A stretch of 64,000 nucleotides of DNA from an uncultured Acidobacteriota bacterium (GTDB lineage Bacteria > Acidobacteriota > UBA6911), in assembly GCA_963809485.1 (NCBI GenBank), contig CAWEJX010000004.1, positions 288,001 through 352,000 on the forward strand, written 5' to 3'. The notes below the pieces were generated by a model. The model was not told the origin of the DNA, made no database searches, and was given only the letters and a program-made list of their open reading frames with translations. Shown here one piece after another: positions 5,882 to 60,040 of the stretch (position 1 is the first letter of the stretch; the number at the start of each line of letters is the position of its first letter). Position numbers and translations under genes: made by a program.

Positions 5882-7591
5882 ATGAGAGAAAAAGCTGGTG
5901 ATAACAAGACAGTTCCCAGGAGAGCTTTTCTGAGAGATGCCGGCCTGGCTATTGGCGCTCCGGTTGTCGCTTCAAAAGCGTTCGCGGCTCCCAATGCAAT
6001 ATCTAAAGCAGAACCAATGCCATTAGGAGGCATTGAACTGGAGCTATTGAATCCAAAAGGTGTCATCGACCCTCCCCCGATGTTAGGAATATCACCCCGC
6101 GTCGCTTCCCTGGAAGGCAAAAAAATCGCCATGATTCACAATAACAAACCTGGCGCCAAAACTTTCCTTGAAGCGGTCGAGGAGTTGCTGAAGGTCAAAT
6201 ATCCCGGAATTACATTTGTTCATTTCGACACAACTATCAACCTGGCAGATAAGCCGGAAAAATACGCGGCGATGGCAAATTCGTGCGACGCCTTTATTCT
6301 CGGTTCGGGAGACTGAGGGACCTGCACGTGGTGGGGTGCCTACCACGCGATACAGATCGAAAAGAATGGCAAACCGGGAATCTACTTTGTAAGCTCGAAT
6401 TTTCTTAAAGACGGCAAGTCCGCATCTGCTGATTGGGGCATGCCGGGACTGCGTATGCTCTCTATCCCTTCCCAGGAATGGTATACCTACAGGAGGACAC
6501 TCGAGGAGATCCGTCCAACAGCAGCCAAACTGCTTGATACCATCATTGATGGATTAACGCGGCCCGCCACCCAGGAGGAGATAAAACCAAGGCAACTGAA
6601 GAGGGAAGAGCATTCGAATATAAAGGTGAGCGCGGATAGCTATGAATCTGCACTGGAGAAATTCAACCAGGTCTTCCTCGATAATCACCTGGGGGACGGA
6701 TTGCCTCTCGTTCCCCCCACCGCGGAGCGGGTGAAATGGATCCTTTCCGGAACAAGTCGGCGTCCCGAGGAAATGCTGGGCAAGTGCCCGATGAAGTTCG
6801 GGAATGTGACGGTTGAAAAACTCGCCATCAACGCCGTAATGGCAGGAGCCAAACCGGAGTACTTCCCCGCCATCATCACCGCAATGGAATGTTTTGTGGG
6901 AGAAAGCGGCCCCGGCCAGAAGGGAGAGTACTTTTTCCACACTCTTGGCTCATCCGGGGCTTTCAACCTGGTGATTTTTATGAATGGGCCGATGGCCAAG
7001 GAGATCAACATGAACTCCGGAATGGGCTTGTTCGGCCATGGATGGCGGGCAAACAACACGATCGGCCGCGCGGTCCGATTAAGCACTATCACCATCGGCC
7101 AGACGTGGCCGAGGGAAAACGACATGGCACTCACCGGCAGGGTCTCGGCCCATACATGGTTTACTTTTGCCGAAAACGAGGAGGCCAGTCTCTGGGAGCC
7201 GTTCCATGTGAGCCTGGGCTTTAATAAAGACGACAGCGTCATGACGGTTGCGAAAGTGAATAACATCTTTTCCACGTTCGGAGGAGGAGCCGTGGCATTC
7301 TGGACCGCTCAGTCGATCCTGGATCAAATGGCGGCAAGGATGACCAAAAACTTCGGCTATGTCGCGGTCTTTGATCCGGAAGTCGTCGATGAGCTGAAGA
7401 AACTCGGATTCACCAGGAAGGACGTGCAGGAGTGGTTTGGGCAAAAGGCCGGTATAAAGCCTGAGAATCTGACGGTCGTGGTCGCAGGCGGTGTTCCCGG
7501 TTATTGCCTGCTCTATACGGTTATGATGGTAAATGCAAATGTGTCTAAAAAAATCACAGGGGCGACCTTAACAAAGGCCGGCCGTGTTTGA
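5882..7591 (+). CDS. Tat-exported UGSC-family selenoprotein (569 aa; Sec at TGA 6314-6316, motif SGD-U-GTC)
   Basis: AAGGAG RBS; PRRAFLRD Tat motif. The frame stays open past the TGA (GTCTWWGAYHAIQIEKNGKPG...) into the 6440 ORF. C-terminal domain has GDGLPLVPPT, VEKLAINAVMAGAKPEY and RANNTIGRA, typical of UGSC-associated domains. Hairpin at 6327-6347. Confidence 0.85.
6327..6347 (+). promoter_or_regulatory. Bacterial SECIS-like hairpin
   Basis: CGTGGTGGG-GTG-CCTACCACG; stem starts +11 after the TGA, apical GUG loop at +20. Confidence 0.7.
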
Positions 7592-7723
7592 TCGTTGACA
7601 ATGTCGATTTCCAACATCCCCTTTGGGCCGGTCTGCGTGTGATCGGTACGGGAGACAGAAGCGCTTTTATCCCGGTCTGATTACGTCCAGAGCCGGCCCT
7701 GCGGGATCTCGGGGGCATTCCAG

Positions 7724-8197
7724 ATGATATTCAGAAGGCGTGCGATCCAGGTGGCAGTTGCTATTCTGATGGTTGTTCCTGTCTATTCCGAGGACTTGCT
7801 GAAAGTAAAAAATGCTGCCGAGGCCAGAGATGCGTCGGTTGCTTACCTGCGCAACCTGGACTCTCGCACGTTCCCGAACCAGGATGCTCAGTGGCAGGAA
7901 AAAACTACCTTCTCAGGCGGTCCCCAGGACATGGTGACGACGGCCAAGCAGTTCACGTCGGATGCTTGGATCATTGAGATTTACCAGGAGCTGGCGCCTT
8001 TGAGAAACACCGTCTATCAAGTCACGGCATTCAGCTCCGCCGAAGGATGGTACTGGAAAGGGAACATTAAAGCTGATGGAAGTGTCAGCGAGTCCAGTCC
8101 TCTCAGGAAACTGCCTGAGGAAGAAAAGCGCCGGACGGCAGAAGAGCTCTTGAAAAAAAGCAGAACTGCTGCTCCCCTCGGCGGGTATGGTCACTAA
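7724..8197 (+). CDS. Exported hypothetical protein
   Basis: 157-aa ORF with a hydrophobic N-terminal signal and plausible composition. Confidence 0.65.
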   Translation: MIFRRRAIQVAVAILMVVPVYSEDLLKVKNAAEARDASVAYLRNLDSRTFPNQDAQWQEKTTFSGGPQDMVTTAKQFTSDAWIIEIYQELAPLRNTVYQVTAFSSAEGWYWKGNIKADGSVSESSPLRKLPEEEKRRTAEELLKKSRTAAPLGGYGH

Positions 8198-8608
8198 TGG
8201 ATCAGGCCAGGCTGACTGGCATGAGTGGCCGCATGCGATCCAGATTGCATCGATATCGTTCAAGAGTCGGGATCGCTGTATAGGTCGCAGGCTGATCCAT
8301 GTATATAAATGTTAGTTTTTCATACCCTGCCAAGGGAGGTTTGAAGCCCGGTCGCATCTATGGATGGCCGACGTCCTATCGCCAGATGGACAGCTATCCA
8401 AGTCGCCTCCAATTACTCGTTGCCCCAAATTTCCGTTTTTTTGCGCCAACATGTAGTAAAATTCCAGCTGAAGATTCAAAAAGAGCTGCAAAAAGCATCC
8501 TATTGGAATCACCGGGGACGGCTCGATCGGTAAGGCCCTGTCAAAAACGGGGATTGATTCTTCCCGTCGGCGGCTCGGGGAAATACTTCCACGGGAAGGA
8601 GAGAGACG

Positions 8609-10636: not shown

Positions 10637-10849
10637 GGCGTCAAGCTGGCGCTTAAGCCGCACACGCCTGAGAATTTCGTGGTTGTCGGTTCCGGCCATT
10701 TCTTCATAGGGCCAAAACCGACGCCGACTCGATCGATGCAGCGCACAAGATTTGCCCAGTCACCGCAAAGGTGTCGCAGGCTGTGTTAGATTTTTGCCTC
10801 CGCAACGATCCTCCCGGCCTCCTCTTTGGTGAAACTGCAGACTTCCTCC

Positions 10850-10965
10850 CGCCATTGGGATTTTATGGACGACCAGTAGCTGTGGATGATTCTCCACTTC
10901 CCGCTGATGCTGTAGTACCCTTCAGTGGAATTCCAGCGCGCTACGACGCTTTCTCCTGCATCCAC
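10850..10965 (-). pseudogene. C-terminal fragment of an NTF2/SnoaL (DUF4440-like) protein
   Basis: RWNSTEGYYSISGKWRIIHSYWS resembles the conserved C-terminal strands of this family; no matching N-terminus is visible. Confidence 0.4.
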
Positions 10966-13435: not shown

Positions 13436-14128
13436 CTATTTCTTTTTGGGCGGACCAAACGTTTTCAGGTTAACAGGTCCTTCCCAATTAAATTTGGTCA
13501 AATCAAAGTTCTTGACGGTGTCTTGCCGGTCCAGGTTTGGCCCAAGGTACAGCGCATGGAAGAGAACGGGCTTTCTGATGGCTCTGAAATTCAGCGGGCA
13601 ATGCTCCACACCTTTGGGAATGAAGACAACGGTTGTCGAGGTGATGGTATGCTTCTCCATCTCTGGCCCCATCCACAGGTCAATCTCCGCATCGAAGCTT
13701 TTGCACAGGTCCGGCAACTCCGCTCCGAGGAAAATCAAAAATTCATCATATTTGTGGAGGTGGGGAGTTTCCCAGCAAACCGGCGCCTTGAACACCTGCC
13801 ATCCTATGGTGGCGGTTGCCCCGGGCAATGCCGAAGCGCCTCTAAAGTAGGTCTGGGGACTGGCTATTTCCGGAAAGGGAGGCAGGCTGTTGAGGGAAGT
13901 AAAATCATTTGCTTTCGGCGGTTGGCGGTTGTCGCTTAGAAAATACTTCCCATATTTGGTCCCGTCGGCTGACGGTATTGCCTCCGGAGCCGCAAACAAT
14001 CCACTTTGATTGGGCGTCAACGCTTCCCGCAAGGAGCTTGCGAGAGCTATGCTGCCGGCGCCTGCGGCGATATTCTTAACGAATCCTCTGCGTGTCGTAC
14101 CCTTTCCCTTCGTGCGGACATGACTCAT
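13436..14128 (-). CDS. Tat-exported cupin-like protein
   Basis: AAGGAG RBS before MSHV; TRRGFVK Tat motif; PHLHKYDEFL and FIPKGVEHCPL cupin motifs. Confidence 0.8.
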   Translation of the reverse strand: MSHVRTKGKGTTRRGFVKNIAAGAGSIALASSLREALTPNQSGLFAAPEAIPSADGTKYGKYFLSDNRQPPKANDFTSLNSLPPFPEIASPQTYFRGASALPGATATIGWQVFKAPVCWETPHLHKYDEFLIFLGAELPDLCKSFDAEIDLWMGPEMEKHTITSTTVVFIPKGVEHCPLNFRAIRKPVLFHALYLGPNLDRQDTVKNFDLTKFNWEGPVNLKTFGPPKKK

Positions 14129-14329
14129 GGCTGACTCTCCTTTGTGTGAATTCTCGTCAATAATACCCATGGAATGACCGTGTCATCTTAGCACCGTGTG
14201 GCCAAGGCGATATAGCGGCTTTTGTGATTCTTCAGGCCTTTGAGAAACAGACTCCCCCAGCTTTGAGCGGTGTGCGGATCTTTGTGGAGTCCGGATCCTT
14301 GCCAATGGTTCGTTAAACCGCTTCGTCCT

Positions 14330-14396: not shown

Positions 14397-14397
14397 T

Positions 14398-17264: not shown

Positions 17265-17864
17265 ATGCGTATCGCCAAAAAAGAAAAACAGACATCGTCG
17301 AGAAGAAAATTTTTCAGGGACGCAGCAGCCGGAATTGCAGGCGCGGCTGTTTTGGGTTCGCTATCCTGCAGCCAAGGGAATCCGCCCGTCAGTGAAGCTC
17401 CAAAAGCCGAGCCGAAAAACCATGCCATGACCAGAGAGGAGTTTCTGGAATACGTTGCCTGTTTCAACCGCAAGGATTTTGAGGCGGTTGCAGGCTATTT
17501 CACGCCTGACATAACCGTGGAGTATTACGACAATGCCACCGGCCCCCGCGTGGAGCCCAGGACGCTCCACGGCCCCAAGGAGTTTATAGAAAACTACAAA
17601 GCGCTTACTGCCATGGTGAAAGAAGTCCTGGAGCTCCGGGATTATCTGTCCACCGAAGACCGGGTGTTTGCGGAACTCTATACGGAATTTCACCCCTACA
17701 ATGATTCCAAGCCGGTCAAGGGCCGGCAGCAGTGGAAAAAGGGCGAGCCCGTGCTTTCGACCAACTGGGTCATGTACGACATGAAGGACGGCAAAATGGG
17801 CCGCATACGGATCGCGCATTGGCGGCTTCACGATTCCAGGACCGCAAAATACTCGCTGGATTAG
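17265..17864 (+). CDS. Tat-exported SnoaL/NTF2-like protein
   Basis: AAGGAG RBS; SRRKFFRD Tat motif; EYVACFNRKDFEAV...YDMKDGKMGRIRIA NTF2 pattern. Confidence 0.8.
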   Translation: MRIAKKEKQTSSRRKFFRDAAAGIAGAAVLGSLSCSQGNPPVSEAPKAEPKNHAMTREEFLEYVACFNRKDFEAVAGYFTPDITVEYYDNATGPRVEPRTLHGPKEFIENYKALTAMVKEVLELRDYLSTEDRVFAELYTEFHPYNDSKPVKGRQQWKKGEPVLSTNWVMYDMKDGKMGRIRIAHWRLHDSRTAKYSLD

Positions 17865-26961: not shown

Positions 26962-29369
26962 TTATATTTTCCCAAGCGCCTTCAGGACTTTATCCGGAGT
27001 CGTCGGATAATCCAGGACCCATTTGCCTGTCGCATTGTGGATCGCGGAGACGGTGACTCCCGACATGCTGGCCCCGATGTTTTCGCCAATGCCACAGGCG
27101 CCATAGGCTGCGTATCCCAAGTGGCTTTCGTTGATCAGGCACTGGGTGTCCGGATAGTCATTCATCGTCCCTATGTGGTACCCGATCAAATCGTAATTGA
27201 GGGCTACTCCGGTGCGGGGACAGAAGATATGCTCCTCGGTGCCGCTTCGGCCCAGCCCCATAACAGCGCCGCCGTATTGCTGGGCATAGGCTCCTTCGGG
27301 ATTGAACAGGTGGCCGACATCGTTGACGCAGACTATATTGGTCACATCGACCATTCCCGTTTCGGTGTCTACCTCGACTTCGATGAAGTGCGCCTGCCTG
27401 GGCATCGCATACGATTGAGGGTCCGGTCGTCCCGTCGGATTCATATCCATGGACGCTGCCGGGTACAGGAGGATGGAAGATTGCAGGATCCTGCGCCCAC
27501 CAAGTATCCGCCACCTCTCTCACTGTCTTTCGGTTGCCTGGGTTCGCTTTCTCGAAAACCATGCTGTCTTTGATATCCAGATCTTCGGGCTTCTTATTGG
27601 GGAAGAGGGAAGGCTGTGCAGGACTGGCAAACAAAGCCGGCCTCGGCCTTACGGCGTATTCAAGAATTTTCTGCTTTAATTCTCTGGCGGCGGGGATTAG
27701 CTGGGTATTGATATAACATGTTCCAAAGGAACCTCCCGGTTGCCAGAGGTGGTAATTCGTATTGTCGGAACGGCGCTCCAGTATGACAGTATCTTCGTAC
27801 TTGAGTCCGGCTTCCGAGGCTACCGCAAGACGCGCGCCCGACTCCGTATCGACCCCCATATCGCTGCGGGCTCCTATAATCGCGGCTTTACCCTCGACGC
27901 AGCGTAACGCATGCGAAGGAGCTGCCGGGAGTGGGCGCGTGCCAGTGCCATTCATTCACGTGGATGAAACCAAGCCCATGCATTTTTCCGTTCGGGAGCT
28001 TTTTGGTTCCGGGCGGATGCCATTTCTCATCCCATCCTATCGCCTTCTTGCCTTTGTCGAGTACTTCCTTGAGGCTCCATCTTTGGGGGAATCCATTTTC
28101 CTTCTGGTACCGCGTGACCCATTCCCAGTCATGGCCGGCGCAGCCGTCGTTTTTCAGGGCGACTTCTGTCGGGTCCAACCCCATTTCCGCAGCAACACGG
28201 GCAAACATTACGTTGTGCGGGACGCAGGTATGGGATCCATGCCGGAAACACATATTGTGCCCTGTATTGACCAGAGCCCATTCCTGTGTGCCCAGGATGT
28301 TGGGAATTTTGGTGCTGACACGCGTCTTATCAATCGCGGGATTTCGAATCCCAAGCATGTGCCAATGCAACGAGGTGATAGTGCCGTCCTTCTTGACTCC
28401 AACCTTGCACCTATAGGTCCCTGCATCGTCGCCGCCGCAGTAATAGCCGCTCTCGTCCCAAAGCAGTTTCACGGGTTTCCCCGCCGCTCTTTTGGCGAGG
28501 ATCGCGGTGAGGCGGATAAAGGCATAGGAGTAGGAAAGCCATGAAAAGCCGCCGTACCACGAACCCTGGTAGGGCATCGTGACGGTGATCTTGGCCCACT
28601 CGGCAAGAGGAGCTCGGGGCTTTTCACGGACCGTGTTCGGAGTGGTAACCGTAGCTTGAGGAAGATCCTGGTGATGAACCCAGAGATCGAGAAAATCGCC
28701 TCTCCACTGGGCAACGCACACAATGGGCTCAACACCTGCCGGCGTATTCCGGGCGCGAGTGATGGTGTATTCAATCACTTTGTCGGCTTCCGCGAAACCT
28801 TTCTCGACATTGCCGAATTCGGCGCGATCGGTCAGAACCGTATTGGGCTCTTTGGCCTTCGGGTTCATGAACTTCACCTCAGGCATGATCTTTGGCGCGT
28901 CCGGCTTGAGGGATTCCGCCATATCGAGGATGAACGGCCGTTCTTCCCATTCTATTTTCAGGAGCCGCAGCGCGCGGTCGCATATTTCTTCGGTGTCGGC
29001 CACGACCACGACACCCATCGGGTGCTGGAAGAATTCGGAGGTCCGGGGCAGGGTCAGCAGGTTGTAGTTGCGGGAAACCTCAAAGCCCGGCAGGGTCTCG
29101 TTGTCGAACTCGATGTCCGGGTCATCGTATCTCAAGATGTCCCGCACGCCCACGAGAGCTTCGGCCTGGCTCGTGTCAATGCTCTTGATGCGCGCATGCG
29201 CGTAGGGGGAAAGGAGGATTTTCGCGTAGAGCATTCCGGGGAGATTGACATCTCTTGTAAAAACCGCCTGTCCGCTGACTCTCTCGAATGCGTCCTGCCG
29301 GTTGATCGTGCGGCTCATGTCTTTGCTGGTTTCGGGTATTTTCCACGTCCATGGTCGATATTCCACCAT
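26962..29369 (-). CDS. Second XDH-family molybdopterin-binding large subunit (two frameshifts, ~27905 and ~27460)
   Basis: MLYAKILLSPYAHARIK, EVEVDTETGMVDV, YAQQYGG, GACGIGE and YPTTPDKVLKALG, spread across three overlapping ORFs. Confidence 0.85.
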
Positions 29370-37564: not shown

Positions 37565-39310
37565 TTGAAAAAAGAGATACGGTTGGCGACTTTGATTCTA
37601 ATAGTGGCTGCCCTATTTTCATCCGCATGTTCTTCGGGGAAGATGACGGTGGGGAAGATGACGGTATTGAATCCATCAGCGGCCAATAAAATGGTGGACC
37701 GGGTGCCGCTTTCGCCCCGCCTTGATGCATTGGAAGGGAAAACCATATTCCTGGTGGATATCGGTTGGGGTGGCCCCCAGGCAGCGCCCAGTGTTTACGA
37801 AGAAATGAAGGCCTGGCTTGCCCAAAACAAGCCCAGTGTGAAAGTGGAGATTCGGAAAATCAAAGGCTCCTACATGGAGGACCAGCCCGAGCTATGGAAG
37901 GAGATTTCCGAAAAAGGTCAGGCGGTAATGATTGGAATATCCGGCTGAGACGGCTGCACGTCGGCCGTGAGCCGTTACTGCAAAACTCTGGAACAGAAAT
38001 TTAACATTCCGACCGTGGGTGGAGCAGCATCCAACATCGTGAAATATGCCCTGGGATACGACTTTGAATTTACCAACGGCATGCCCATCCGCTACATCTC
38101 CTTCCCTTTCCCGGTGGCCGGTCAGCCGCAATCGGTTCACCACCAATACGTTTTCGACGGCAAAGATGTCGTCAGCGGAAAACCGATGATGCAGGCATTT
38201 ATCGATGCGTTGACTCTTCCTCTGACGGAAAAAGAGAAACATAAGGGAGCGGCTCCTGAGTCCGAACCCGCGCCTCGACTTCTTGGACCGGATACCGAGG
38301 ACAATTTGCAGCGCCTTTTCAAGGACCGCGACTGGACTGACTATAATCCGATCATCCTTCCTACCGAGGCAAGGGTAGCCGAGATGCTGAAAGGCACCTC
38401 TCATAAACCGGAAGAAGTCATTAAGACCGTGAACTGGCCCGGAGGCAATCGGGACCTTACCGTGGAAAAAGCCGCTATCTGCGCCGTAATGGCCGGCGCC
38501 AAAAAGGAATACCTGCCGGTTATCCTGGCTCTGGCAAAATCGGTACCGTTCGGCAACTCCACATCCTCCATGGCCAACATGATCCTGGTCAATGGCCCCA
38601 TACGGAAGCAGATCGGCATGAATTCCGGCGCCAATGTCATGGGGCCCCATAATGAGGCTAATTCGGTTATCGGCAGGACCTTCACGCTGATGTCGAAAAC
38701 CGTAGGAGGCCTGCATAGTGAAAAGACCACCTGGAGCACTTTGGGAAGCACCATGCAGTACAACAATGTGTGTATTGCCGAAAACGAGGAGGCTTTGCCC
38801 GAAGGCTGGGAGCCTTTTCATGTGCAAATGGGATTCAAGCCGGAAGACAGCGTTATAAACGTCGCCACCGGATGGACGTATATTTCCAGCGTGGGCGAAG
38901 CACAACGGAACTATCCGCCCCACATGTTGATGCGCGATTACATGAAGGCTCTTTCCGGAATGGGGTCGAGGGCCACCGTCATCATGGACCCCACGGTTGC
39001 AAGACTCCTCAAGGAAGGCCAGGGCTTTCAGACAAAGGATCAGCTGAGCCAGTGGTTTTCGGATAATGTTGAAAAACCTCTCGCCAGTTACCTGGGCAAC
39101 GGTGTGCTCTCGGGAACTCTTACCAATTACGGCGCCCAGGGAATGGAACCCTATGCAACATGGGCGAAATATCCGCTGGATAAAATGATTAAGCCGTTCC
39201 ACCAGGCTTCGGGCATCAAGATCCTTGTAGCCGGTGGGGGAATCCAGACAACCTGGTTTGTGACGGATTTCATGCTGGGCCGGGGTACGCTCATCGACGA
39301 ATGGCGCTAG
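37565..39310 (+). CDS. Lipoprotein UGSC-family selenoprotein (581 aa; Sec at TGA 37946-37948, ISG-U-DGC)
   Basis: GGAGGT RBS with TTG start; lipobox SSAC. The TGA is followed in frame by DGCTSAV into the 37967 ORF. TDYNPIILPT and VEKAAICAVMAGA motifs; hairpin at 37949-37976. Confidence 0.85.
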
Positions 39311-45840: not shown

Positions 45841-48231
45841 CTATTTTGAAAGAGCCTTGATCCTGCTTTCGAGCAACTCACTTTCTTCGGTGGAAAGCCG
45901 GCCGCTCTCCAGAGCGCCCTGATACAGCGTCCTGGCCTCTTTTGTCTTTCCCTGTTTGAAATAGATCTCTCCCAGCAGGGAGATTGCATCGATATAAGGC
46001 GCTTTCTGTCGAACAATGCGCTGCAATATGGAGACCGAATTCGAGCTGTTTCCGCTCTGCAGAAGGTAAAAAGCCAGCGAGTAGCCGTACTGGGGATTTT
46101 CCGGCTGCAGTCCGTAGGCACGACGCAAATAATCGATCGCGGAATCCATTCTTCCCAGCTTTGCGTGGATTACGCCCAGGTTATAGGCCGCCACGGCGGA
46201 TTCCGGGTCCAGTTCTGCAGCTTTTTGCAGATGCGAGGCGGCCTCTTCATAGCGTCCCATCTCTCCAAGCAGTAAACCGAGGTTTAGATTCGCCTCCAGG
46301 CTTTTCGGCTGCAATTCACGGGCCTTGCGCAGACTTTGAACGGCCTTGTCGTTCAAGCCGAGCCCGTTATAGGCGAAGGAGATATTGACATAAGGCTGTA
46401 TAGCGCGCGGTTGCAGCCGAATGGCGGTTTCGTAGAACGCCGAGGCTTGACCGTAGTCGCGCTGCGAGAGGTAAAAGCTGCCCATATTGTAGTGGGAAGC
46501 CCAATGATCGGGCCGGGCTTCCAGAGTTGATTTGAATTCCCCGGCAGCTTTATCAAAGGCCGCCGCAGTTCCGGCATCCAGCAAATCCCGCGGTATTGCC
46601 GCCATGGCGGAAGCGGCGCGAACGCGCACAAGCCGGGATCTATCCTGAATCGCGACGCTCAGCGCTTTCATTGTCTCATTGTCGATCCGGTCTCCCAAAG
46701 ATTCGGCGGCACTGGCGCGAACCAGTGGCGAAGGATCCTCCAGTGCCCGGATAAGTACCGGCCATTTACGGTCGTCCTCACAAGGACGGAGCAAACGGAT
46801 CAGCGATGCGGTGAAAACCGCATCATGATCCTTACGCTCCAGGTATTCCAGCATGGCCGGAAGCTTTTTCCAGTCACGCCTGCGCGCCGCATCAATGAGA
46901 GAAGCCCGATGGAGAACCGGCGCCTGATAGTCCCTGTTTCGCCACTTACGCACCCATCCATCGGCCCATGCGGCATCCCTGTCCGTATGACAGATGTTGC
47001 AGGCATTGGGGGACTTGTAAGCGATGGTCGCCGCAGGAATCGGCGGCAACATCGAATGATCGCTGCGGCGCATTCGGGCAAATTCGGTCTTCGGCATATG
47101 GCAGGAAATGCACTGACTCCCGGCGCTCCCTTCCGGATGGTGCGAATGGGCGGAGGCATTTTCCACTCTCACGGCATGACAGGGCAGACAGGCCTTGTTT
47201 TTCATATTGGCAGCGAACAGAAAACGCCCGCTCGATGTGTGGCAATGCAGGCAGTCCATCTGTCCCGATTGCGCACAAGGGCTCAACAACCACTGCGTAT
47301 AGGTGTAATTTTCACCCAGGTCCCGCCCATCGGGATAATAATCAGGCAAATCGAAAGCACCCAAGTCAAAATGGTCAAAGAAATCATCCCCGGGGATATA
47401 GGAAACTGTCAGGGGGGAAGCTTTGGCGTGGCATGAAGCACAGGAATCGCCCGCAATTTTCCTGCTATATTTCGGCGAACGGATCACATCAATTTTAAGA
47501 TCTTCGGGAGGCTTGTCCTTCGCAGCCTGGCGGCAGACACGAATATGCTCGACCGCGGATCCATGGCAGGCTTCGCAGTTAATGCCCGGCTCGCGCCAGA
47601 CGGAACTGTAGCTGTCGGTTTTAAGATCGTAATTGCGCGCAAACTGGCTGACATGGCATCCATAGCAGGAAGTATTGAAAGTGTACTCCGGATCTTTCCA
47701 TCCTACCGGCTCTTCCTCGATGTCCTGAAAATGGCGGATCCCGCTTGCCGCCGTGTCGAACCAGGATTTTCTCTGCACATCGTAAGCCAGGGGAAGAACC
47801 TGCAGGCGGCCGCGGTCCATGGGAGTAAGGAAGTAATAGACGTTTTTCCCTCCCATTGCATGAACTATCGGATATTTGCTGTTTCCTTTCGGTCCACTCT
47901 CGCTGATCCAGCCCCGTTTGCCATCAAATTCCACACCATAATCGGCGTCTCCAATCACCAGATTTTGAGGCTGAACGGTCAGCTTTGTTTGAAACAATTC
48001 CGCCGTAAAAGGCTGCATGGCCAGGCCATGATGCGAAGGAGCCCAAAGCCGGTAAAACTTTTCATGGCATTCCCGGCATGACTGCGTACCGGAATAGCCG
48101 GAGGAACCCGCATATCCATCTTTCGTACGCCCGGAAGACGGTCCATATAGCTTGAGCCGATAAAAGGCCAGGGCTGCGGCGATAAGCGCAACAACCAGCA
48201 AAGCTGTCACAATCCATGGCCTTCTCTTCAT
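45841..48231 (-). CDS. Membrane-anchored multiheme (8 CxxCH) cytochrome c with HEAT and TPR repeats
   Basis: CRECH, CYGCH, CEACH, CASCH, CLHCH, CLPCH, CISCH, CNICH; N-terminal TM segment; HEAT/TPR C-terminus. Confidence 0.9.
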   Translation of the reverse strand: MKRRPWIVTALLVVALIAAALAFYRLKLYGPSSGRTKDGYAGSSGYSGTQSCRECHEKFYRLWAPSHHGLAMQPFTAELFQTKLTVQPQNLVIGDADYGVEFDGKRGWISESGPKGNSKYPIVHAMGGKNVYYFLTPMDRGRLQVLPLAYDVQRKSWFDTAASGIRHFQDIEEEPVGWKDPEYTFNTSCYGCHVSQFARNYDLKTDSYSSVWREPGINCEACHGSAVEHIRVCRQAAKDKPPEDLKIDVIRSPKYSRKIAGDSCASCHAKASPLTVSYIPGDDFFDHFDLGAFDLPDYYPDGRDLGENYTYTQWLLSPCAQSGQMDCLHCHTSSGRFLFAANMKNKACLPCHAVRVENASAHSHHPEGSAGSQCISCHMPKTEFARMRRSDHSMLPPIPAATIAYKSPNACNICHTDRDAAWADGWVRKWRNRDYQAPVLHRASLIDAARRRDWKKLPAMLEYLERKDHDAVFTASLIRLLRPCEDDRKWPVLIRALEDPSPLVRASAAESLGDRIDNETMKALSVAIQDRSRLVRVRAASAMAAIPRDLLDAGTAAAFDKAAGEFKSTLEARPDHWASHYNMGSFYLSQRDYGQASAFYETAIRLQPRAIQPYVNISFAYNGLGLNDKAVQSLRKARELQPKSLEANLNLGLLLGEMGRYEEAASHLQKAAELDPESAVAAYNLGVIHAKLGRMDSAIDYLRRAYGLQPENPQYGYSLAFYLLQSGNSSNSVSILQRIVRQKAPYIDAISLLGEIYFKQGKTKEARTLYQGALESGRLSTEESELLESRIKALSK

Positions 48232-48528
48232 ATCAGGCTCTTTTCTTTGCCGACAGACGGCGTATTGATCCGCGGCTCTTAGGATTCCGGCATATTCCAA
48301 ATCAACCGGCGCGACGCATGAAATGCGGAGACATCGTCGATAACGGGAAACGCAGAGACCGCAGGCCAAGCCATGCGCGCGGCCTATTGTACTTCACCAC
48401 AGGGCCTTCAATCCGAAAAAATGGCGCTGCCCGATTTGTCTTGCATAAGCCCCGGTAAACCATGGATAAAGTATGTGCCGGAAGCAAAGAATCTCGTTAC
48501 GATGATCCTTGCGAGGGGGGCCTGATCC

Positions 48529-50398: not shown

Positions 50399-52781
50399 CT
50401 CGCTGCGGGACACAGTTGACACTGTGGGTGTTTGATGCTATACATAACCCATGCGACTGTGTGGGCGCGAGTTCAGCGCGGAGGTAATTGCCCAGATTGG
50501 AGGGATCTTGAGTGCCAATCCCTCTTTGTCTCGTTGTGCCCTGTCTCAGCGCGTTTGCGAGCTTCTGCAGTGGAAATCGCCTAACGGCAAAATCAAGGAG
50601 GTTAGTTGCAGAAAAGCGCTGCTTGAATTGCACCGCCGCGGTTTTCTCAATCTGCCGGCGGCTGCGGAATCCTGTTTCAATCGATCTAGCTCCAAGCCGC
50701 CGCCTGATCTAATGGCTGATGTGTCTGAGCTAGAATGCACTCTGGATGAACTCGGTAAGATAAGCATTGCTCCTGTCTCCAGCCGCTACAGCAAGGCGTC
50801 GAAGATATGGAATACTCTCGTGGAGCAATTCCATTATTTGGGCAAAGGGCCTCTGTGCGGCGCACAGATTCGCTACTTGGTAGAGAGTTCAGAACATGGG
50901 TTTGTTGGAGCACTGGCTTTCAGCGCTGCACAGTGGCGGTTGAAGAAACGAGATAAATATATTGGCTGGACCGAGGCAGCTCGACGTGCCAATCTGAATC
51001 TGGTTGTTTGTAATAGCCGATTTCTGATTTTGCCCGGCGTGCACGTTCCGAACCTGGCTTCGCATGTACTGAGCCAGTGTCTGGGCCGGCTGGCGGATGA
51101 CTGGGTAGACCGCTATAATTACCGGCCGGTGTTGGTCGAGACCTTTGTGGACCCGAGCCGTTTTGTCGGGACGTGCTATCGAGCGGCTAATTGGTTGCAT
51201 GTCGGGCAGACAGCGGCGGAGGATACGGCGTATCCCAACGGGAAGGTAGCAAAAGGGCCCAAAGACATCTACTTGTATCCGCTCCGTGGCGATTGGCAAA
51301 AGGTGCTAAGTACGGAGCCGAAGGTAGTGCTGGGAAACACGCCGCAGTTCGAAGCCCCAGACGACTGGACCGAAGAAGAATTCGGGCGGGTGCAGTTTTT
51401 CGATCAACGGCTCAAATCCCGGCTGTTCACGTTGGCGGCGGATTTTTTTGCGCAACCTGGGGAACTGATTCCGCAGGCATCCAGCGGCTCGAAAGCAAAG
51501 ACAAAAGCAGCGTACCGATTTTTTCAGAATGACAACGTGGATATGCAGAAGCTACTCAGACCGCACATTGAGTCGACCATTGAACGGCTGCGTACGCATA
51601 AGGTGATACTGGCGGTACAGGACACGAGTTCGCTGAACTACACCGCGCACCCACCTGAGGGAGTCGGTCCAATCAATAACAGTCAGAATAGCGCCATGGG
51701 GCTGGAGCTTCACGACACGATGGCGTTTACTCCCGAGGGCATACCGCTGGGACTGCTCGACGTGCAATGTTGGGCGCGGGATCCGAACGACGTGGGCAAA
51801 AAGCGCCGCCGCCACCAACTGCCGATCGAAGCCAAAGAAAGCAAGAAATGGCTGGTGAGTTACCGAGCCGTAAGCGAGGTACAAAAGATCTGCTCGGATA
51901 CGATGCTTGTGAGCGTCGGCGATCGAGAGGCCGACATCTACGAGCTGTTCCATGAAGCCGCACAGGATACATCAGGTGCGAAGCTGCTAATCCGTGCCGA
52001 TCGCGCTCGAAATCGAGCGGTCATCGAGGAGGACAATAAGGAAGAACTGTGGAAGAAGATGGAGGGAGAGCCCGTAGCCGGATTGGTCGATGTCGCAGTC
52101 CCGCGTCGAGGTTCGAGCCCAGCTCGGACAGCTAAGATTCAAGTGAGGTTTTCCCGAATAATGCTCAACCCACCGTCAAAAAGCAAGCTCCCAGCCTTGA
52201 GCGTATGGGCGGTGTATGCGCGGGAAGTCGACTATGGCGTCGAAGTCAAAGAACCTATTGATTGGATGCTTTTGACTTCAGTCAAGACAGAGAGCTTTGA
52301 AGATGCTTGCGAGCGACTGAGTTGGTATGCCCGACGTTGGGGAATTGAAGTATATCATCGCACGATAAAAAGCGGATGCCGTATCGAGGATCGTCGGTTG
52401 GATGATGCCGAGAGCATTCAGGCTTGCCTAGCAATCGACCTTGTGGTGGCTTGGCGAGTCTACTGGCTTACTATGGTGGGCCGAGAAAAACCGGAGACAC
52501 CGTGCAATCAAATACTCAGTGAAGATGAATGGCATGTGCTGAGCGCCTGGGCAACAGGCAAGATTGCCGATACAGTTCCCAGTACCAAACAGGCGATGCA
52601 CTGGATTGGCAAACTGGGTGGTTGGCTGAGCAGAGGGAAAACTGACAATCCGGGCACAACATGTATGTGGAGGGGGCTGGGCCGTCTGCCAAGCATGGCG
52701 CAAGGATATCGGCTGGCTCTACAGATTCATGGAGTGAGGGCTGGCCCTTGAGCCACAGTCTCACCTGTGGGGTACAGCGAG
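50399..52781 (+). mobile_element. Complete IS4-family (IS50/Tn5-like) insertion sequence, 2383 bp
   Basis: Imperfect 29-bp TIRs (CTCGCTG.....CACAG.TGA.ACTGTGG, 22/29); 9-bp TSD GGCAGAGCC at 50390-50398 and 52782-52790. Confidence 0.92.
50451..52751 (+). CDS. IS4-family transposase with an N-terminal DUF4338 (DruA-like) domain
   Basis: HYLG, NSRFLILP and VETFVDP (DUF4338); AVQDTS, VGDREADI, YARRWGIEVYHRTIKSGCRIE (YREK) and LGGWL..PG..MWRGL dimerisation domain. Confidence 0.93.
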   Translation: MRLCGREFSAEVIAQIGGILSANPSLSRCALSQRVCELLQWKSPNGKIKEVSCRKALLELHRRGFLNLPAAAESCFNRSSSKPPPDLMADVSELECTLDELGKISIAPVSSRYSKASKIWNTLVEQFHYLGKGPLCGAQIRYLVESSEHGFVGALAFSAAQWRLKKRDKYIGWTEAARRANLNLVVCNSRFLILPGVHVPNLASHVLSQCLGRLADDWVDRYNYRPVLVETFVDPSRFVGTCYRAANWLHVGQTAAEDTAYPNGKVAKGPKDIYLYPLRGDWQKVLSTEPKVVLGNTPQFEAPDDWTEEEFGRVQFFDQRLKSRLFTLAADFFAQPGELIPQASSGSKAKTKAAYRFFQNDNVDMQKLLRPHIESTIERLRTHKVILAVQDTSSLNYTAHPPEGVGPINNSQNSAMGLELHDTMAFTPEGIPLGLLDVQCWARDPNDVGKKRRRHQLPIEAKESKKWLVSYRAVSEVQKICSDTMLVSVGDREADIYELFHEAAQDTSGAKLLIRADRARNRAVIEEDNKEELWKKMEGEPVAGLVDVAVPRRGSSPARTAKIQVRFSRIMLNPPSKSKLPALSVWAVYAREVDYGVEVKEPIDWMLLTSVKTESFEDACERLSWYARRWGIEVYHRTIKSGCRIEDRRLDDAESIQACLAIDLVVAWRVYWLTMVGREKPETPCNQILSEDEWHVLSAWATGKIADTVPSTKQAMHWIGKLGGWLSRGKTDNPGTTCMWRGLGRLPSMAQGYRLALQIHGVRAGP

Positions 52782-53820: not shown

Positions 53821-55668
53821 ATGAAGAGGCTTTTCGAAATAATTCTGACAATGTTGGCTGTGATGGGATTGACGCTGGTTTTTGCCGCACCTCCTCAAAA
53901 GGCAGGCAAAGCTTCACCTGCGAAACAGGCTGGTGGAACCAAAGAGCCGGTGTACCAGTTCCTGAACCCGAAGGGACTTCCGGGGCCGATCAAGGTACAG
54001 GGACTGGCACCCCGTCTTGACACGATCAAGGGCAAGACGATCTACGTTGTTGCCTGCGAAGCCGGTCCGCAGACCGGGCCGTATTTGTATAACTATTTGA
54101 AGAAGCAATACCCGGATACGAATTGGGTTCACATACAGCACAATGGCATGGGCCCTACCGATCCGAAAATCGAAGGGGACATGCTGCAAAAGGCCGACGG
54201 GCTGATAGGTGGGCAATCGTGGTGAGGGGCCGCCACCAGTGTTCAGTCTGAATACAATACAAAGGTAGAGAAAGCCGGAATCCCCACCGTCAGATTTGGT
54301 TTTGCCGACCAGAAGAAATATTTCGAGCGAACTGCCCGGCTCAATAATGTGCCCCAAATGCGATGGGTAAGCATCCCACGCACGGGCCCGCCGGAACAGC
54401 GCATATATCCCATTGCGCCGGCTCTCATTGAAGCCCTGACCAAACCTCTGACCAAAGAGGAGATGTATGTGGGCACGTACACGCCGGAAATGCCGCCGAG
54501 GTATATCTTCAAGGGCACCTATGATGAAGCCATTGAATTTTTCAATGCAACCGAGCATGTGGATTCAGCGGATGCCGATATCAGCATTTACAGCGACGGC
54601 TCCCCAATCATACCGCCAACCGAAGAGAAGGTGGCGAAGATGCTCACCGGCACCAGCCTCAAGCCCGATACTGTCGTAACGGATGCAAAAGGAAATCCCG
54701 TTCGATTTTCCAGGTACGAGACGGTCACGGTGGAAAAGGTGGCCATTATCGGCGCGATGGCCGGCTGCAAGCCGGAATACATGCCCGTCCTGCTCGGGAT
54801 AGCTGAACTGGGCGGCGCCAGCACCAATTGCCCCGGCACCAGCAGTTCCGAGGGCACGCTGTATGTTGTCGACGGTCCCGTTGCCAAGGAGGTGGGTATT
54901 GGAGCCAGGCACGAATTCCTGGACTGGGGGAACCGGGCGAATGTGAGCCTTGCCAAAGCAGCCCGGCTCATGACGATCAATTTTGGCGGCTGCGTTGCGG
55001 GCATCGTCCGCACGGATGCCGGCAATCCGATATCTTCAGTCATTGCTGAGGATAGAGATGGCTTGCCTCCAGGCTGGGAAACCGTTGGAGAGGATTTTGG
55101 TTTCAAGAAAAATGACAGTGTTCTTGTTAAACTCGGAACGCGCGGTTTTGGGGTCAACGAGTTTGCCCCGGGCGCGTCCCGAAGGCTCCAGGACGGCATC
55201 GGAAGCTTAGCGGATGACCTGGGCGTGCTGGGAAAACCCGGGCCGCATAACATTCTTGCCTGGCTCGTTCCCCGCATCGCTCCTTTATACATAAACTTGG
55301 GGCACGTCTTCGTCATGGTGCCCAATCTGGCCAGGCCGGTCGGACAGATATACCCGACCAAGGCCGCTGTCTATGAATGGCTGTTCAACGATTTCAAGGC
55401 CACCATCCGCGACTATCAGCATCACGGCTGGTGGGAATTTAATACAGGGAACGGCGATCAGAAGGAAGGTACCAATAAAGAGGGTCTTTCGTTTAATCAG
55501 CTGATTGAAAAGTATGGTCTTGATTACAAAATCCCCGTCTTTGGCTCGAGAAGCCCCAAAGAAAACCTCATCATCGTGGGCGGCGGCGGAGCGGATGAAT
55601 CGATCTGGCATTTCGGCCTCCAATTTGGCGGTCGAGGCCGGGCTGTCACCATAGATAGATGGCGGTAA
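53821..55668 (+). CDS. Sec-pathway-exported UGSC-like selenoprotein, tandem copy 1 (615 aa; TGA 54223-54225, QSW-U-GAAT)
   Basis: AAAGGAG RBS; signal peptide; reads in frame past the TGA (GAATSVQSEYNTKVEKAGIPTV) into the 54349 ORF; DGSPIIPPT and MAGCKPEY; hairpin at 54239-54255. Confidence 0.85.
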
Positions 55669-56191
55669 AGCAAGGCCAAATTAGCCTCAGTCATCGAATT
55701 GCGGCCGTCGAGCCGCAACCAAATTGAGCCTGCGGGTAGGTCCCGTCCGGCGGACGGGACCTACTTGGACGGATCTGGAGCAGCCGTCCGCACATTCGAA
55801 AAAGCAGGGGAGTGGAGGATCCGACCCCTTTCTCCTATCACGTCATTTACCGCCATTACAGGGCTTTGCCTTTTATTGCTTCCCTGCCCGGGGTTTCTCT
55901 GCGTCGCGTTTTCAGCGCTTCGTGCGCACCCTTTGAAGTCCGACTCACCTGATAAGAGCCTTGCGCAATTTTCCCTTGTGTGAAGATAACATTGCCCCTA
56001 TGATAAGCTCATTTCCTAAACAAATAGGACGCTTCACCGTCTGTTCCACAAAATTGCTTGGTTTGGCCCTTTTGACGAAGTTCACGAGCCAACGCGAAGA
56101 AACTTCTTTGAAGTTCAAGAAGAATGAAGGGATTAAAGGGCGATACGCATTGCCGCACATATAAACTACCTGTTTCGAAAGGAGATTTCTT

Positions 56192-58030
56192 ATGAAGAGG
56201 CTTTTCGAAATTGTTTCGATGGCATTGGTTGCGGTGTGGTTGACCTTCGCTTTTGCCGCACCTCCTCAAAAAGCAGGCAAAGCTTCACCTGCGAAACAGG
56301 CAGGTGAAACTAAAGAGCCGGTGTACCAGTTCCTCAATCCAAAGGGAATTCCGGGTCCGATAAAGGTACAAGGACTGGCACCACGTCTTGACACGATCAA
56401 GGGCAAGACGATTTACGTTGTTGCCTGCGAAGCCGGCCCGCAGACCGGGCCGTATTTGTATAACTACTTGAAGGAGCACTATCCGGACACGAATTGGGTT
56501 CACATACAGCACAATGGCATGGGCCCGACCGATCCAAAAACCGAAGGGGAAATGCTGCAAAAGGCCCAGGGTTTGATCGGAGGGCAATCGTGGTGAGGGG
56601 CCGCTACAAGTGTTCAGTCTGAATACAATACAAATGTAGAGAAGGCCGGAATCCCCACCGTGAGATTTGGTTTTGCAGACCAGAAGAAATACTTTGAGCG
56701 AACTGCTCGGCTCAATAATGTACCCAAATTGCGCTGGGTAGACATTCCACGCACGGGCACACCGGAAACGAGGCTATATCCGATTGTTCCGGCTCTGATT
56801 GAAGCCTTGACCAAGCCTCTGACCCAAGAGGAGATGTATGTGGGCACGTACACGCCGGATCCACCGGAAAGGTATATCTTCAAGGGCACCTATGATGAAG
56901 CCATAGAATTCTTCAACTCGACCGAGCATGTGGATTCGGCCGATGCCGATATCGGCATCTACAACGACGGCTCCCCCATAATCCCGCCGACCGAGGAGAA
57001 GGTGGCGAAGATGCTCGCCGGCACCAGCCTCAAGCCGGATACGGTAGTAAAGGATGCAAAAGGGAATCCGGTGAGATTTTCCAGATACGAAACCGTTACG
57101 GTGGAAAAGGTGGCCATTATCGGCGTCATGGCCGGCTGCAAGCCGGAATACATGCCGATCCTGCTGGCAATGGCCGAGCAAGGCGGAGGCAGCACGAATT
57201 GCCCGGGAACCAGCAGTTCTCCAGGAGTTTTGTATGTCGTCGACGGTCCCATTGCCAAGGAGATAGGCGTTGGTGCCAAACACGAATTCCTGGACTGGGG
57301 GAACCGGGCGAATGTGAGCCTTGCCAAAGCAGCACGGCTCATGACGATAAACTATGGCGGCTGCATTGCGGGTATCGTCCGCACGGATGCCGGCAATCCA
57401 TTGTTTTCAGTCATTGCCGAGGATAGAGACGGCTTGCCTCCGGGCTGGGAAACCGTTGCCGAAGATTTTGGCTTCAAGAAAAATGATAGTATTCTAGCCA
57501 AACTCGGAACGCGTGGCTTTGGGGTCAACGAGTTTGCCCCGGGCGCGTCGCGCAGGCTCCAGGACGGCATCGGAAGCCTGGCGGATGATCTTGGCGTGCT
57601 GGGGAAATCCGGGCCGCATAACATACTTTCGTGGCTCGTTCCCCGCATCGCTCCTCTATATATAAACACGGCTCATATCTTCGTCATGGTGCCCAATCTC
57701 GCCAAGCCGGTCGGACAGATGTACCCGACCAAGGCCGCCGTGTACGATTGGCTGTTCGGCAACTTCAAAGCAACCATCCGCGATTATCAGCATCACGGCT
57801 GGTGGGAATTTCAGACAGGAATCGGCAGCCAGGTCGAGGGAACCAACAAAGAGGGTCTGACGTTTAATCAGCTGGCTCAAAAGTACGGTAGCGATTACCA
57901 GATCCCCAGGTTCGGATCGAGAAGCCCTAAAGAAAACCTCATCATAGTAGGCGGCGGCGGAGCGGATGAGTGCATCTGGCACTTCGCAGGCGGCCGAGGC
58001 CCCGCGGTCAACCTGGATAAATATCGCTAG
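56192..58030 (+). CDS. UGSC-like selenoprotein, tandem copy 2 (612 aa; TGA 56594-56596)
   Basis: Same architecture, with TGA at codon 135 and an identical hairpin at 56610-56626. Confidence 0.85.
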
Positions 58031-58067
58031 AGCCTGGTTTCATTGAGCCATTATTCATCGGAAACAG

Positions 58068-58094
58068 GAAGGGGGTAAATTGGTTGCCCCCTTC
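58068..58094 (+). terminator. Strong hairpin between copies 2 and 3 (terminator or RNA stabiliser)
   Basis: GAAGGGGGTAA-ATTGG-TTGCCCCCTTC; weak U-tract. Confidence 0.45.
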
Positions 58095-58195
58095 TCCTCA
58101 TTGGTGTGATAAGTAAATTCATAGACTTTCACAAACCGAACCGCAGATTCCATGGGTATCAGGGTAATTTGCCTATTTCGAAAGGGAGATTTCGT

Positions 58196-60040
58196 ATGAA
58201 GAGGCTTTTCGAAATTGCTGCGATGGTATTGATTGCGGTGTGGTTGACCTTCGCTTTTGCCGCTCCGCCTCAAAAAGCTGGCAAAGCTTCACCTGCGATA
58301 AAGGCAGGTGAAACTCAAGAACCGGTGTACCAGTTCCTCAATCCGAAGGGAATTCCAGGCCCGATCAAGGTGCAGGGACTCGCGCCGCGTCTTGACACGA
58401 TCAAGGGCAAGACGATCTACGTTGTTGCATGCGAAGCCGGTCCGCAGACCGGGCCGTATTTGTATAGCTATTTGAAGAAGCAATACCCGGATACGAATTG
58501 GATTCACATTCAGCACAATGGCATGGGCCCGACCGATCCGAAAACCGAGGGCGAAATGCTGAAAAAAGCCCAGGGGTTGATAGGAGGGCAATCGTGGTGA
58601 GGGGCCGCCACCAGTGTTCAGTCTGAATACAATACAAATGTAGAGAAGGCCGGAATCCCCACCGTCAGATTCGGTTTTGCAGACCAGCAAAAATATTTTG
58701 AGCGAACTGCCCGGCTCAACAATGTGCCCAAATTGCGCTGGGTAAGCATCCCACGCACCGGCCCGCCGGAAACGAGGCTCTATCCCATTGTTCCGGCTCT
58801 GATCGAAGCCTTGACCAAACCTCTGACCAAAGATGAGATGTATGTGGGCACCTATACGCCCGACATGCCGCAAAGGTATGTCTTCAAAGGCACCTATGAC
58901 GAAGCCATTGAATTCTTCAACGCGAGCGAGCATGTAGATGTAGCCGATGCCGAAGTCAGCATTTACACCGACGGATCACCCATCATCCCTCCGACCGAGG
59001 AGAAGGTGGCGAAGATGCTCACCGGCACCAGCCTCAAGCCCAATACTGTCGTAACGGATGCAAAAGGGAATCCGGTGCGGTTTTCCAGATACGAAACCGT
59101 TACGGTGGAAAAGGTGGCCATTATCGGCGTTATGGCCGGCTGCAAACCGGAGTACATGCCGGTGCTGCTGGCAATAGCCGAGCAGGGCGGCGGCAGCACC
59201 AACTGCCCCGGCACCAGCAGTTCTCACGGCACCGTGTATGTTGTCGACGGTCCCATTGCCAAAGAGGTGGGTATCGGCGCCAGGCACGAATTCCTGGACT
59301 GGGGGAACCGGGCGAATGTGAGCCTTGCCAAAGCCGCCCGGCTCATGACAATCAACTTCGGCGGCTGCATTGCAGGCATCGTGCGCACCGATGCCGGCAA
59401 CCCGCTGTTTTCGGTCATTGCAGAGGATAGAGAGGGCTTGCCTCCAGGCTGGGAAACCGTTGGCGAGGATTTTGGTTTCCAGAGAAAAGATAGCGTTCTT
59501 GTAAAACTTGGAACGCGTGGTTTCGGTGTCAACGAGTTTGCCCCGGGCGCATCCCGCAGGCTCCAGGACGGTATTGGAAGTCTGGCGGATGACCTGGGCG
59601 TGGTGGGGAAACCCGGGCCGCATAACATACTTGCGTGGCTCGCTCCCCGCCTTGCTCCTTTGTATATAAACACGGGGCATGTTTTCATCATGGTGCCCAA
59701 TTTGGCCAAACCGGTCGGCCAGTTATACCCGACCAAGAATGCCGTCTACGAATGGCTGTTCAACAATTTCAAGGCCACCATCCGCGACTATCAACATCAT
59801 GGCTGGTGGGAATTTTTCACGGGGAATGGCGAACAGATAGAAGGAACCAACAAAGAGGGTCTCTCATTCAATCAAGTGGCCAAAAAGTATGGTCTTGACT
59901 ACAAGGTTCCCGTCTTCGGTTCAAGAAGCCCTAAGGAAAACCTAATCATAGTAGGTGGTGGAGGAGCGGATGAGTGCATCTGGCACATCCATCTCCTCGG
60001 TGGCCGAGGCTTCGCCGTCAACATAGACAGATGGCGGTAG
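58196..60040 (+). CDS. UGSC-like selenoprotein, tandem copy 3 (614 aa; TGA 58598-58600)
   Basis: Same architecture, with TGA at codon 135 and an identical hairpin at 58614-58630. Confidence 0.85.

Follow-up and report, generated by a model that had tools for sequence, protein, structure and literature searches.

Does a TGA codon within a long reading frame end a gene or encode selenocysteine (Sec)? This question is posed five times by a stretch of 64,000 nucleotides (nt) from an uncultured Acidobacteriota bacterium (assembly GCA_963809485.1, contig CAWEJX010000004.1, positions 288,001 to 352,000 of the forward strand). This whole stretch is called the window below, and positions without a contig name count from its first letter. 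Five plus-strand loci of the window, here named g1 to g5, each fall into a pair of shorter open reading frames (ORFs) separated by one TGA, and an original prediction took them for exported selenoproteins of the UGSC type. Judged by their sequences, the five loci are selenoprotein genes of the known UGSC family, fused to a large conserved domain. It is very probable that each of them is one Sec-decoded gene for an exported two-domain protein with the published UGSC/Unknown_1 architecture, belonging to a genus-specific expansion.

All five plus-strand frames were open when TGA was read through, with exactly one internal TGA each (at 6314, 37946, 54223, 56594 and 58598), and the split gene pairs are therefore single frames with the coordinates first proposed for them. 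The first gene, g1 (5882-7591, +), would encode 569 amino acids (aa) with Sec at residue 145 (U145, codon 6314-6316) in the motif GSGD-U-GTC, and it terminates on a TGA of its own at 7589; TGA thus still functions as a stop codon in this host. In g2 (37565-39310, +; TTG start, 581 aa) the corresponding residue is U128 (codon 37946-37948) in the motif GISG-U-DGC. The remaining three genes form a tandem trio, g3 (53821-55668, +; 615 aa), g4 (56192-58030, +; 612 aa) and g5 (58196-60040, +; 614 aa), which share the motif QSW-U-GAA with Sec at residue 135 (codons 54223-54225, 56594-56596 and 58598-58600, respectively); the g3 product is 86.5-87.8% identical in amino acid sequence to those of g4 and g5. 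All five U positions occupy a single column (column 335) of an alignment with 57 full-length relatives. The conserved motifs pointed out at the outset, LNP, APR(L/V)..L.GK.I, (I/V)EK.G.P, DG.P..PPT and VEK.A...MAG.KPEY, were all found in the translations. The position of five TGAs in one column, together with a Pfam match that spans the TGA, excludes chance.

This match is to PF24696 (UGSC; gathering score 25 bits) and covers residues 56-226 in g1 (101.5 bits; UGSC domain at 6047-6559, +) and residues 34-191 in g2 (35.4 bits). In the trio, g3 scored 19.1 bits, below the threshold, and g4 and g5 gave no match to this model. A hidden Markov model (HMM) of the family, built from alignment A1, recognized all five products with 574 (g1), 470 (g2), 381 (g3), 403 (g4) and 398 bits (g5). 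The equivalog model NF041046 (147 positions, curated cut-off 125 bits) stayed below its cut-off for all five, with 83 bits for g1 and 21-23 bits for the others. As this model covers only the N-terminal domain of the long fusions, the long forms are related to the equivalog rather than members of it. Membership in the UGSC type, as originally assigned, thus holds for all five genes; the UxxC motif assigned with it is found in g1 (UGTC) and g2 (UDGC), where a Cys follows at +3 after Sec. The trio reads UGAA and is a subfamily with Sec and no resolving Cys. The Cys of the MAG(C)KPEY block in the second domain was considered as a replacement for it, and this was rejected: in this genome the pattern goes back to a single duplication (3 loci), and elsewhere MAGC often accompanies CxxC.

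The second domain comprises about 340 residues (about 6599-7588, +, in g1) with the conserved blocks DGxPxxPPT, VEKxAxNAVMAG(C/A)xPEY, NGP and AENE, and with P279, A321, G322, G369 and E431 (g1 numbering) as invariant residues. It had no match in Pfam or NCBIfam, and Pfam at E ≤ 5 returned only a chance-level hit to DUF5641. The block AxNxVMAG(C)xPEY...VNGP was found in all five genes as well as in the consensus of alignments A1 and A2. In the part of the paper by Zhang and Gladyshev (2008) that was accessible, Fig. S1A (PMC2398784) depicts a domain 'Unknown_1' fused to UGSC with the motif AxNxVMAGCxPEYxP...VNGP. This is the same block, and as far as that figure goes the UGSC/Unknown_1 architecture has already been published.

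If the TGAs were ordinary stops, each locus would consist of two genes, one for a short UGSC fragment and one for the downstream domain. Standard ORF callers do split the loci in this way, and stand-alone UGSC genes as well as a separate gene for the C-terminal domain exist elsewhere in the genome. However, the UGSC model crosses the TGA, so that the fragment would stop in the middle of a domain, before a helix; all five TGAs fall into a column that is occupied by Cys in other members; full-length Cys forms are common; and hairpins follow the TGAs. We consider this explanation highly improbable.

The composition of that column was determined in 57 full-length cluster representatives, in which it held 26 Cys, 9 Ser, 5 Ala, 3 Thr, 2 His, 2 Gly, 1 Met, 1 Glu, 1 Ile and 7 gaps. 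Cys, the residue expected at the U position if TGA encodes Sec, thus accounts for 26 of the 50 aligned relatives. Individual sequences agree with this. Among the g1 orthologues, three (L051-L053) retained the TGA and one (L054) had Cys in the sequence GDCSTC; in two metagenome-assembled genomes (MAGs) of Dehalococcoidia the TGA was kept together with the same hairpin, and the Cys form belongs to a third. Distant full-length relatives of the trio carried Cys at this site and, like the trio, lacked the resolving Cys (FCGGAA in P0176 and P0237, WCHGA in P0170). The nearest relatives were recorded in another form. The 19 nearest homologues of the trio (68-95% identical, 374-470 aa; table read by eye) spanned only 39-64% of the searched region, and all eight that were inspected started just past the TGA, as do the gene calls nearest to g4; such a pattern would result if gene callers stop at a conserved Sec codon. 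In the same manner, 39 of the 150 best matches began at query residues 151-197, just past U145 (table read by eye). The search covered 1.84 billion cluster representatives and yielded 4156 clusters at E ≤ 1e-3, of which 467 reached E ≤ 1e-30.

The machinery for Sec incorporation is encoded in the same genome (G000; 6.04 Mb, 21 contigs, completeness 95.7%, contamination 7.3%). Genes for selA (564.7 bits), selB (391.3 bits) and selD (345.5 bits; C8:80982-81905) were found together with a tRNA-Sec (70.6 bits, anticodon tca), as the original prediction presupposed. The selD gene has one in-frame TGA itself, and SelD is therefore probably also a selenoprotein in this organism.

Downstream of the UGA, each of the five genes can form a hairpin on the plus strand. 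In g1 a hairpin resembling a selenocysteine insertion sequence (SECIS) lies at 6327-6347, i.e. at +14 to +34 counted from the U of UGA, with a 9-bp stem and the loop GUG. The SECIS-like hairpin of g3 (54239-54255, +17 to +33) has a 7-bp stem, GUGUUCA/UGAAUAC, and the loop GUC, and hairpins of identical sequence follow in g4 (56610-56626) and g5 (58614-58630). In g2 the hairpin is located immediately 3' of the UGA (37949-37976, +4 to +31) and has the apical loop UCGGC. Genome-wide, the 52 nt after the active-site codon folded with a mean of -15.7 kcal/mol at 44 Sec loci compared with -10.8 kcal/mol at 13 non-Sec paralogues (Mann-Whitney p = 1.9e-5). When at least 6 perfect base pairs and a loop of 3-7 nt were demanded, and G was scored in the first two loop positions, such a hairpin was present in 25 of the 44 Sec loci, in all 25 with an early G. 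Among the controls it occurred in 2 of the 13 non-Sec paralogues, none with G, and at 62 of 285 positions taken from elsewhere in these genes, of which 28 had G. The stems were conserved within subfamilies and showed modest covariation, with double-sided changes in 1 of 5 and in 3 of 4 pairs; a third hairpin subfamily gave no consensus structure. A scan of the window against Rfam at the gathering score returned no match. For the Sec reading, sequence analysis can hardly give more certainty than this.

The five genes are a small part of a much larger set. A census of the genome, made by six-frame translation with TGA read through followed by hmmsearch and hmmalign, revealed 57 fusion loci that cover the active-site column, about 25 of them on contig C12 alone. 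Five such genes in 55 kb, as first noted, are indeed present, yet they sample a family that is spread over the whole genome. At the active site, 44 loci have TGA, none has Cys and 13 have other residues (Ser in 5, Ala in 3, and Gly, Met, Thr, Leu and Asn in one each). Nearly the whole model was covered in a single frame by 36 of the 44 Sec loci, and the other 8 were split or truncated (table read by eye). PF24696 matched 58 places in the genome at E ≤ 0.01 and the C-terminal domain of g1 matched 67; at the fused loci the two matches are adjacent, and stand-alone UGSC genes and separately encoded C-terminal domains also occur.

These counts bear on another explanation, according to which the TGAs are sequencing or assembly errors, lesions of pseudogenes, or the sign of a genome-wide reassignment of TGA. 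The genome was assembled from a metagenome and carries the contamination mentioned above, some paralogues are frameshifted, and the XDH-like gene at 27161-29369 in the window is frameshifted as well. Still, 44 independent loci have the TGA at one and the same column and none has Cys there, other genomes and metagenomes have kept the TGA, and its use as the terminal codon of g1 means that it remains a working stop. The probability of this explanation is, in our view, close to nil.

The family is restricted in its distribution. In the same genus all 29 sampled genomes had 8-45 matches; in ten other genera of the family 17 of 21 genomes had none and the other 4 had 1-2, and in other families of the class 2 of 16 genomes had one match each. 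The closest named record was an uncultured Acidobacteriota MAG at 97% identity. The five genes are accordingly members of an expansion of the UGSC/Unknown_1 fusion that is specific to one genus, in a soil or wetland Acidobacteriota genome. In a search of sequencing runs no RNA run was listed, and the DNA runs shared at most 0.18 of the sampled words.

The N-termini of the five products indicate where they may act. Export was judged by a custom N-terminal heuristic, not by SignalP. The N-terminus of the g1 product shows the twin-arginine motif in textbook form (RRAFLRDAG), then a hydrophobic segment and AFA (5882-5986, +). The trio products have a short basic start, a hydrophobic core and AFA, as in signals of the general secretory pathway (Sec-type, not to be confused with the residue); that of g3 reads MKRLFEIILTMLAVMGLTLVFA. 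In g2 the hydrophobic core ends with F-S-S-A-C, the usual Leu at -3 is missing and a close paralogue lacks that Cys, so the signal could be that of a lipoprotein or an ordinary Sec-type signal peptide. Thus, from their N-termini the five window proteins are apparently exported; of the three export routes that had been proposed, the twin-arginine (Tat) route for g1 and the Sec-type route for the trio were recovered by the heuristic, and the lipoprotein route for g2 is uncertain because of its non-canonical lipobox. Exported-looking N-termini were found at 44 of the 57 loci, including about 38 of the 44 Sec loci, and 7 of the 13 non-Sec loci did not look exported. Full-length Cys relatives mostly begin at the LNP motif: only 1 of 26 was flagged by the heuristic, to which one Tat-like N-terminus seen by eye can be added. 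The orthologues of g1 in Dehalococcoidia are also without signal. Since Cys relatives are mostly signal-less and Sec copies here mostly signal-bearing, the pairing of Sec with export is typical of this lineage.

A confident two-domain model was obtained for g1 by structure prediction. AlphaFold2 (AF2), supplied with alignment A1, modelled the full-length product with a predicted local distance difference test score (pLDDT) of 89.7 and a predicted template modelling score (pTM) of 0.88, and the high pTM suggests that the two domains pack as one unit. In this model, which contains a domain of parallel beta-alpha-beta type, a strand (137-143) leads to U145 and a helix (146-161) follows, placing Sec at the helix N-terminus. 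Residues 75-234 matched only generic flavodoxin-like/Rossmann-like chains (VIA Z 8.3-10.4; Foldseek E at least 2e-4), and the UGSC domain is accordingly predicted to adopt a flavodoxin-like three-layer alpha/beta fold. No thioredoxin (Trx) was among the 50 structural matches listed for the g1 model. The Trx-like fold guessed in the 2008 paper, as worded in its accessible part (PMC2398784), was thus not seen in this predicted model. For the C-terminal domain alone, AF2 gave a pLDDT of 92.7 and a pTM of 0.93. Among the solved structures searched, none was a convincing relative of this predicted model, and we do not call its fold new. A profile search of PDB sequences with A1 returned nothing meaningful (best E 0.0087), and a search of the ESM Atlas with the homologue P0001 gave only clusters labelled UGSC or hypothetical.

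The following sequence of events would connect these features. SelB and the tRNA-Sec would decode the internal UGA as Sec by means of the hairpin just downstream, giving products of about 570-615 residues with an export signal, a UGSC domain with Sec at a helix start, and the conserved and compact C-terminal part (about 340 residues). If the proteins are oxidoreductases, as we suppose, their reactive centre may be the selenolate at this helix start; a selenenylsulfide with Cys+3 could then arise in g1 and g2, and the trio would use another partner or none. The C-terminal domain may bind the substrate, and the paralogues may differ in the substrate bound. For cytoplasmic relatives, the electrons probably come from NAD(P)H by way of a TrxR-like flavoprotein. 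A gene of this kind (Pyr_redox_2, 162.5 bits, 306 aa; 93354-94274 on contig C12) is situated directly upstream of a signal-less stand-alone UGSC gene with a Sec codon (137.4 bits), the pair occupying about 92.9-94.3 kb of that contig. The presence of 44 Sec copies and no Cys copy in the genome argues that the site performs demanding chemistry. A selenol redox enzyme is our best guess for the function of these proteins, though a tentative one that we hold with somewhat less than even confidence.

The same genes may instead encode non-redox proteins, either extracytoplasmic binders of a solute or of a metal or metalloid, or hydrolases or lyases with U-x-x-C as a redox switch. Many members have neither Cys nor Sec at the site, and relatives with Ser, Ala or Gly there imply that the core function does not always depend on it. 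The N-terminal fold is a generic flavodoxin-like/Rossmann-like one that also occurs in the halves of binding proteins, the weak fold matches include hydro-lyases and cyclic amide hydrolases, and large sets of exported paralogues are typical of substrate-binding families. On the other hand, every copy with a reactive residue uses the costly Sec, 44 against 0 with Cys, a TrxR-like gene heads one operon, and no transporter genes were seen paired directly with the five window genes. This alternative appears possible to us, on the unlikely side. A similarly doubtful reading takes the proteins for a new enzyme class, selenium-dependent and periplasmic, with a catalytic domain of previously unseen fold; its paralogues would have diversified over many substrates in the way of sulfatases or glycoside hydrolases.

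Several observations weigh against exported, Sec-dependent redox enzymes as the reading of these loci. Concerning decoding, the folding z-scores of the individual loci in the window were weak (-0.8 to -1.7), the apical loop of g2 has no G in its first two positions, and the 8 split or truncated Sec loci may be pseudogenes or assembly errors, given the contamination of 7.3%. Concerning the chemistry, three points speak against an obligatory redox role of the Sec site: 13 of the 57 loci in the genome have neither Sec nor Cys there, the column is filled by residues such as Ser, Ala, Thr or Gly in 24 of the 50 full-length relatives that align, and the trio is without a resolving Cys. Against assigning a chemistry to the C-terminal domain, it has no match in Pfam and no recognisable cofactor motif, and its structural matches were weak: VIA gave Z ≤ 6.0 over 78 residues (best the C-terminal domain of FakA), and Foldseek gave E of at least 6e-4 at template modelling scores of 0.23-0.26, with class I fumarate hydratase followed by cyanuric acid hydrolases.

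We also considered whether the neighbouring genes reveal partners. The window contains genes for AFOR, an aldehyde dehydrogenase, XDH-type molybdenum subunits (one frameshifted), two FAD_binding_2 flavoproteins, a small ferredoxin, two sulfatases, a TPR multihaem cytochrome, a Tn5-like transposase, and an NrfD-like gene together with a molybdopterin gene. No signal peptide was present in AFOR, the aldehyde dehydrogenase, the XDH large subunit or either of the FAD_binding_2 flavoproteins. These neighbours would therefore reside in another compartment and joint work with the exported proteins is unlikely, which leaves the proposed functional link to the Mo/W enzymes unsupported. The flavoproteins, first described as AprAB-like, scored far below the AprA cut-offs, with 143 and 104 bits against 557 and 93-94 bits against 641.75. 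When genes within 5 kb of the family loci were counted in the whole genome, XDH-type large subunits were the most frequent (11), followed by a mixed flavoprotein cluster (8; CO-dehydrogenase-type FAD subunit, including the TrxR-like gene), DUF4352-like small proteins (7), FAD_binding_2 proteins and DHDPS-like proteins (6 each), and TonB-like receptors, AFOR and carboxylesterases (5 each). The recurrent neighbours fit catabolic islands, and no fixed partner emerges. Co-location with Mo/W enzymes is thus real in the sense that XDH-type and AFOR genes recur genome-wide, with no operon-level link seen in the window.

Some further genes were observed close to the family loci. Downstream of g1, after a gap of 133 nt, comes an ORF in the same orientation (7724-8194, +) for a product of 157 aa with a signal peptide and no family match; small DUF4352-like genes stand behind 7 other paralogues, and the ORF showed no similarity to these. 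About 1 kb upstream of the tandem trio, with a lipocalin-like gene in between, a gene for 766 aa (50451-52748, +) combines a DruA-like N-terminal part (122.9 bits) with the DNA-binding and dimerisation domains of a Tn5-type transposase. Near the operon of TrxR-like and UGSC genes, and near DHDPS-like genes, a PFL-like glycyl radical enzyme is encoded (529 bits; L069 12635-15004, +, corresponding to G000 C12:96634-99003), with a single in-frame TGA ahead of a weak match to Gly_radical (25 bits); this TGA may encode Sec, reflect a frameshift or be a genuine stop.

Elsewhere in the window, the XDH-type molybdenum-binding subunit (27161-29369, -) is interrupted by a frameshift and not by an in-frame TGA, reflecting a pseudogene or an assembly error. 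Twin-arginine-like N-termini were seen in a SnoaL-like protein (17265-17861, +; SRRKFFRDAAAG) and in a 244-aa protein of no known family (13439-14170, -; TRRGFVKNIAAGAG). Between the two sulfatase genes, a gene for 842 aa (45844-48369, -) encodes multihaem cytochrome c motifs and a long TPR run.

How do these genes compare with known systems? In the glycine reductase operon, trxB-trxA genes stand with the selenoproteins GrdA and GrdB, and the operon on contig C12 is similar in that a TrxR-like flavoprotein gene heads an operon with a U-x-x-C selenoprotein. Unlike glycine reductase, the exported UGSC copies cannot use cytoplasmic NADPH directly; nor did any relation to GrdA, GrdB or PrdB in sequence or fold come to light, though no search aimed at one was made. 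Tat-exported formate dehydrogenase is an example of an exported bacterial selenoprotein, and the genes described here likewise combine Sec with an export signal. The same combination appears in the ABC-transport selenoproteins in the accessible part of the work by Haft and Gwadz. Both groups belong to unrelated families, as far as that part goes, and here one family provides dozens of exported selenoproteins.

The closest relatives remain the UGSC/Unknown_1 proteins of Zhang and Gladyshev (2007/2008), with the same two domains and Sec or Cys in the same column. In the accessible parts of PMC2398784, PMC1976440 and a 2026 review (PMC13188914), the function of UGSC is given as unknown; with 255 Sec forms in the Global Ocean Sampling (GOS) data, it is one of the predicted selenoproteins found most often in aquatic metagenomes (PMC2398784). 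For Olavius delta-1, the available part of that report (PMC1976440) gives just one gene containing UGSC, and 2-12 selenoprotein genes for each family with several copies, in contrast to the 57 fusion loci in one genome here. Further differences from known UGSC proteins are the export signals on most copies (1 of 26 full-length Cys relatives by the heuristic), the U-G-A-A motif of the trio without Cys, and a predicted flavodoxin-like fold instead of the guessed Trx-like one. In the literature searched on UGSC, Methylomirabilota, Acidobacteriota and periplasmic or signal-peptide selenoproteins, no exported or expanded UGSC was found; neither did we find an expansion of this size, its confinement to a single genus, a composition of Sec copies throughout that are mostly exported, the subfamily with Sec and without Cys, or the flavodoxin-like rather than Trx-like prediction.

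For annotation, these genes are a warning, as every one of them is split by standard gene callers. A Methylomirabilota MAG reportedly carries 63 selenoprotein genes (this is said to be the result of Deng et al., 2026, in Cell Rep). The 36 single-frame Sec loci of the genome studied here (44 with the split ones), together with selD, approach the largest bacterial selenoproteomes cited in the accessible part of the 2026 review, 57 and 63 genes (PMC13188914). A genome of this lineage keeps 8-58 copies, and nearly all of them pair Sec with an export signal; they supply many natural variants for comparison, and the export signals point to a role outside the cytoplasm. If the doubtful reading as a new enzyme class were true, this would be the largest single-family selenoprotein expansion reported, and one genus, with dozens of exported Sec paralogues in each genome, would have built a largely extracytoplasmic selenoproteome from a single family, none of whose copies in this genome has Cys in place of Sec.

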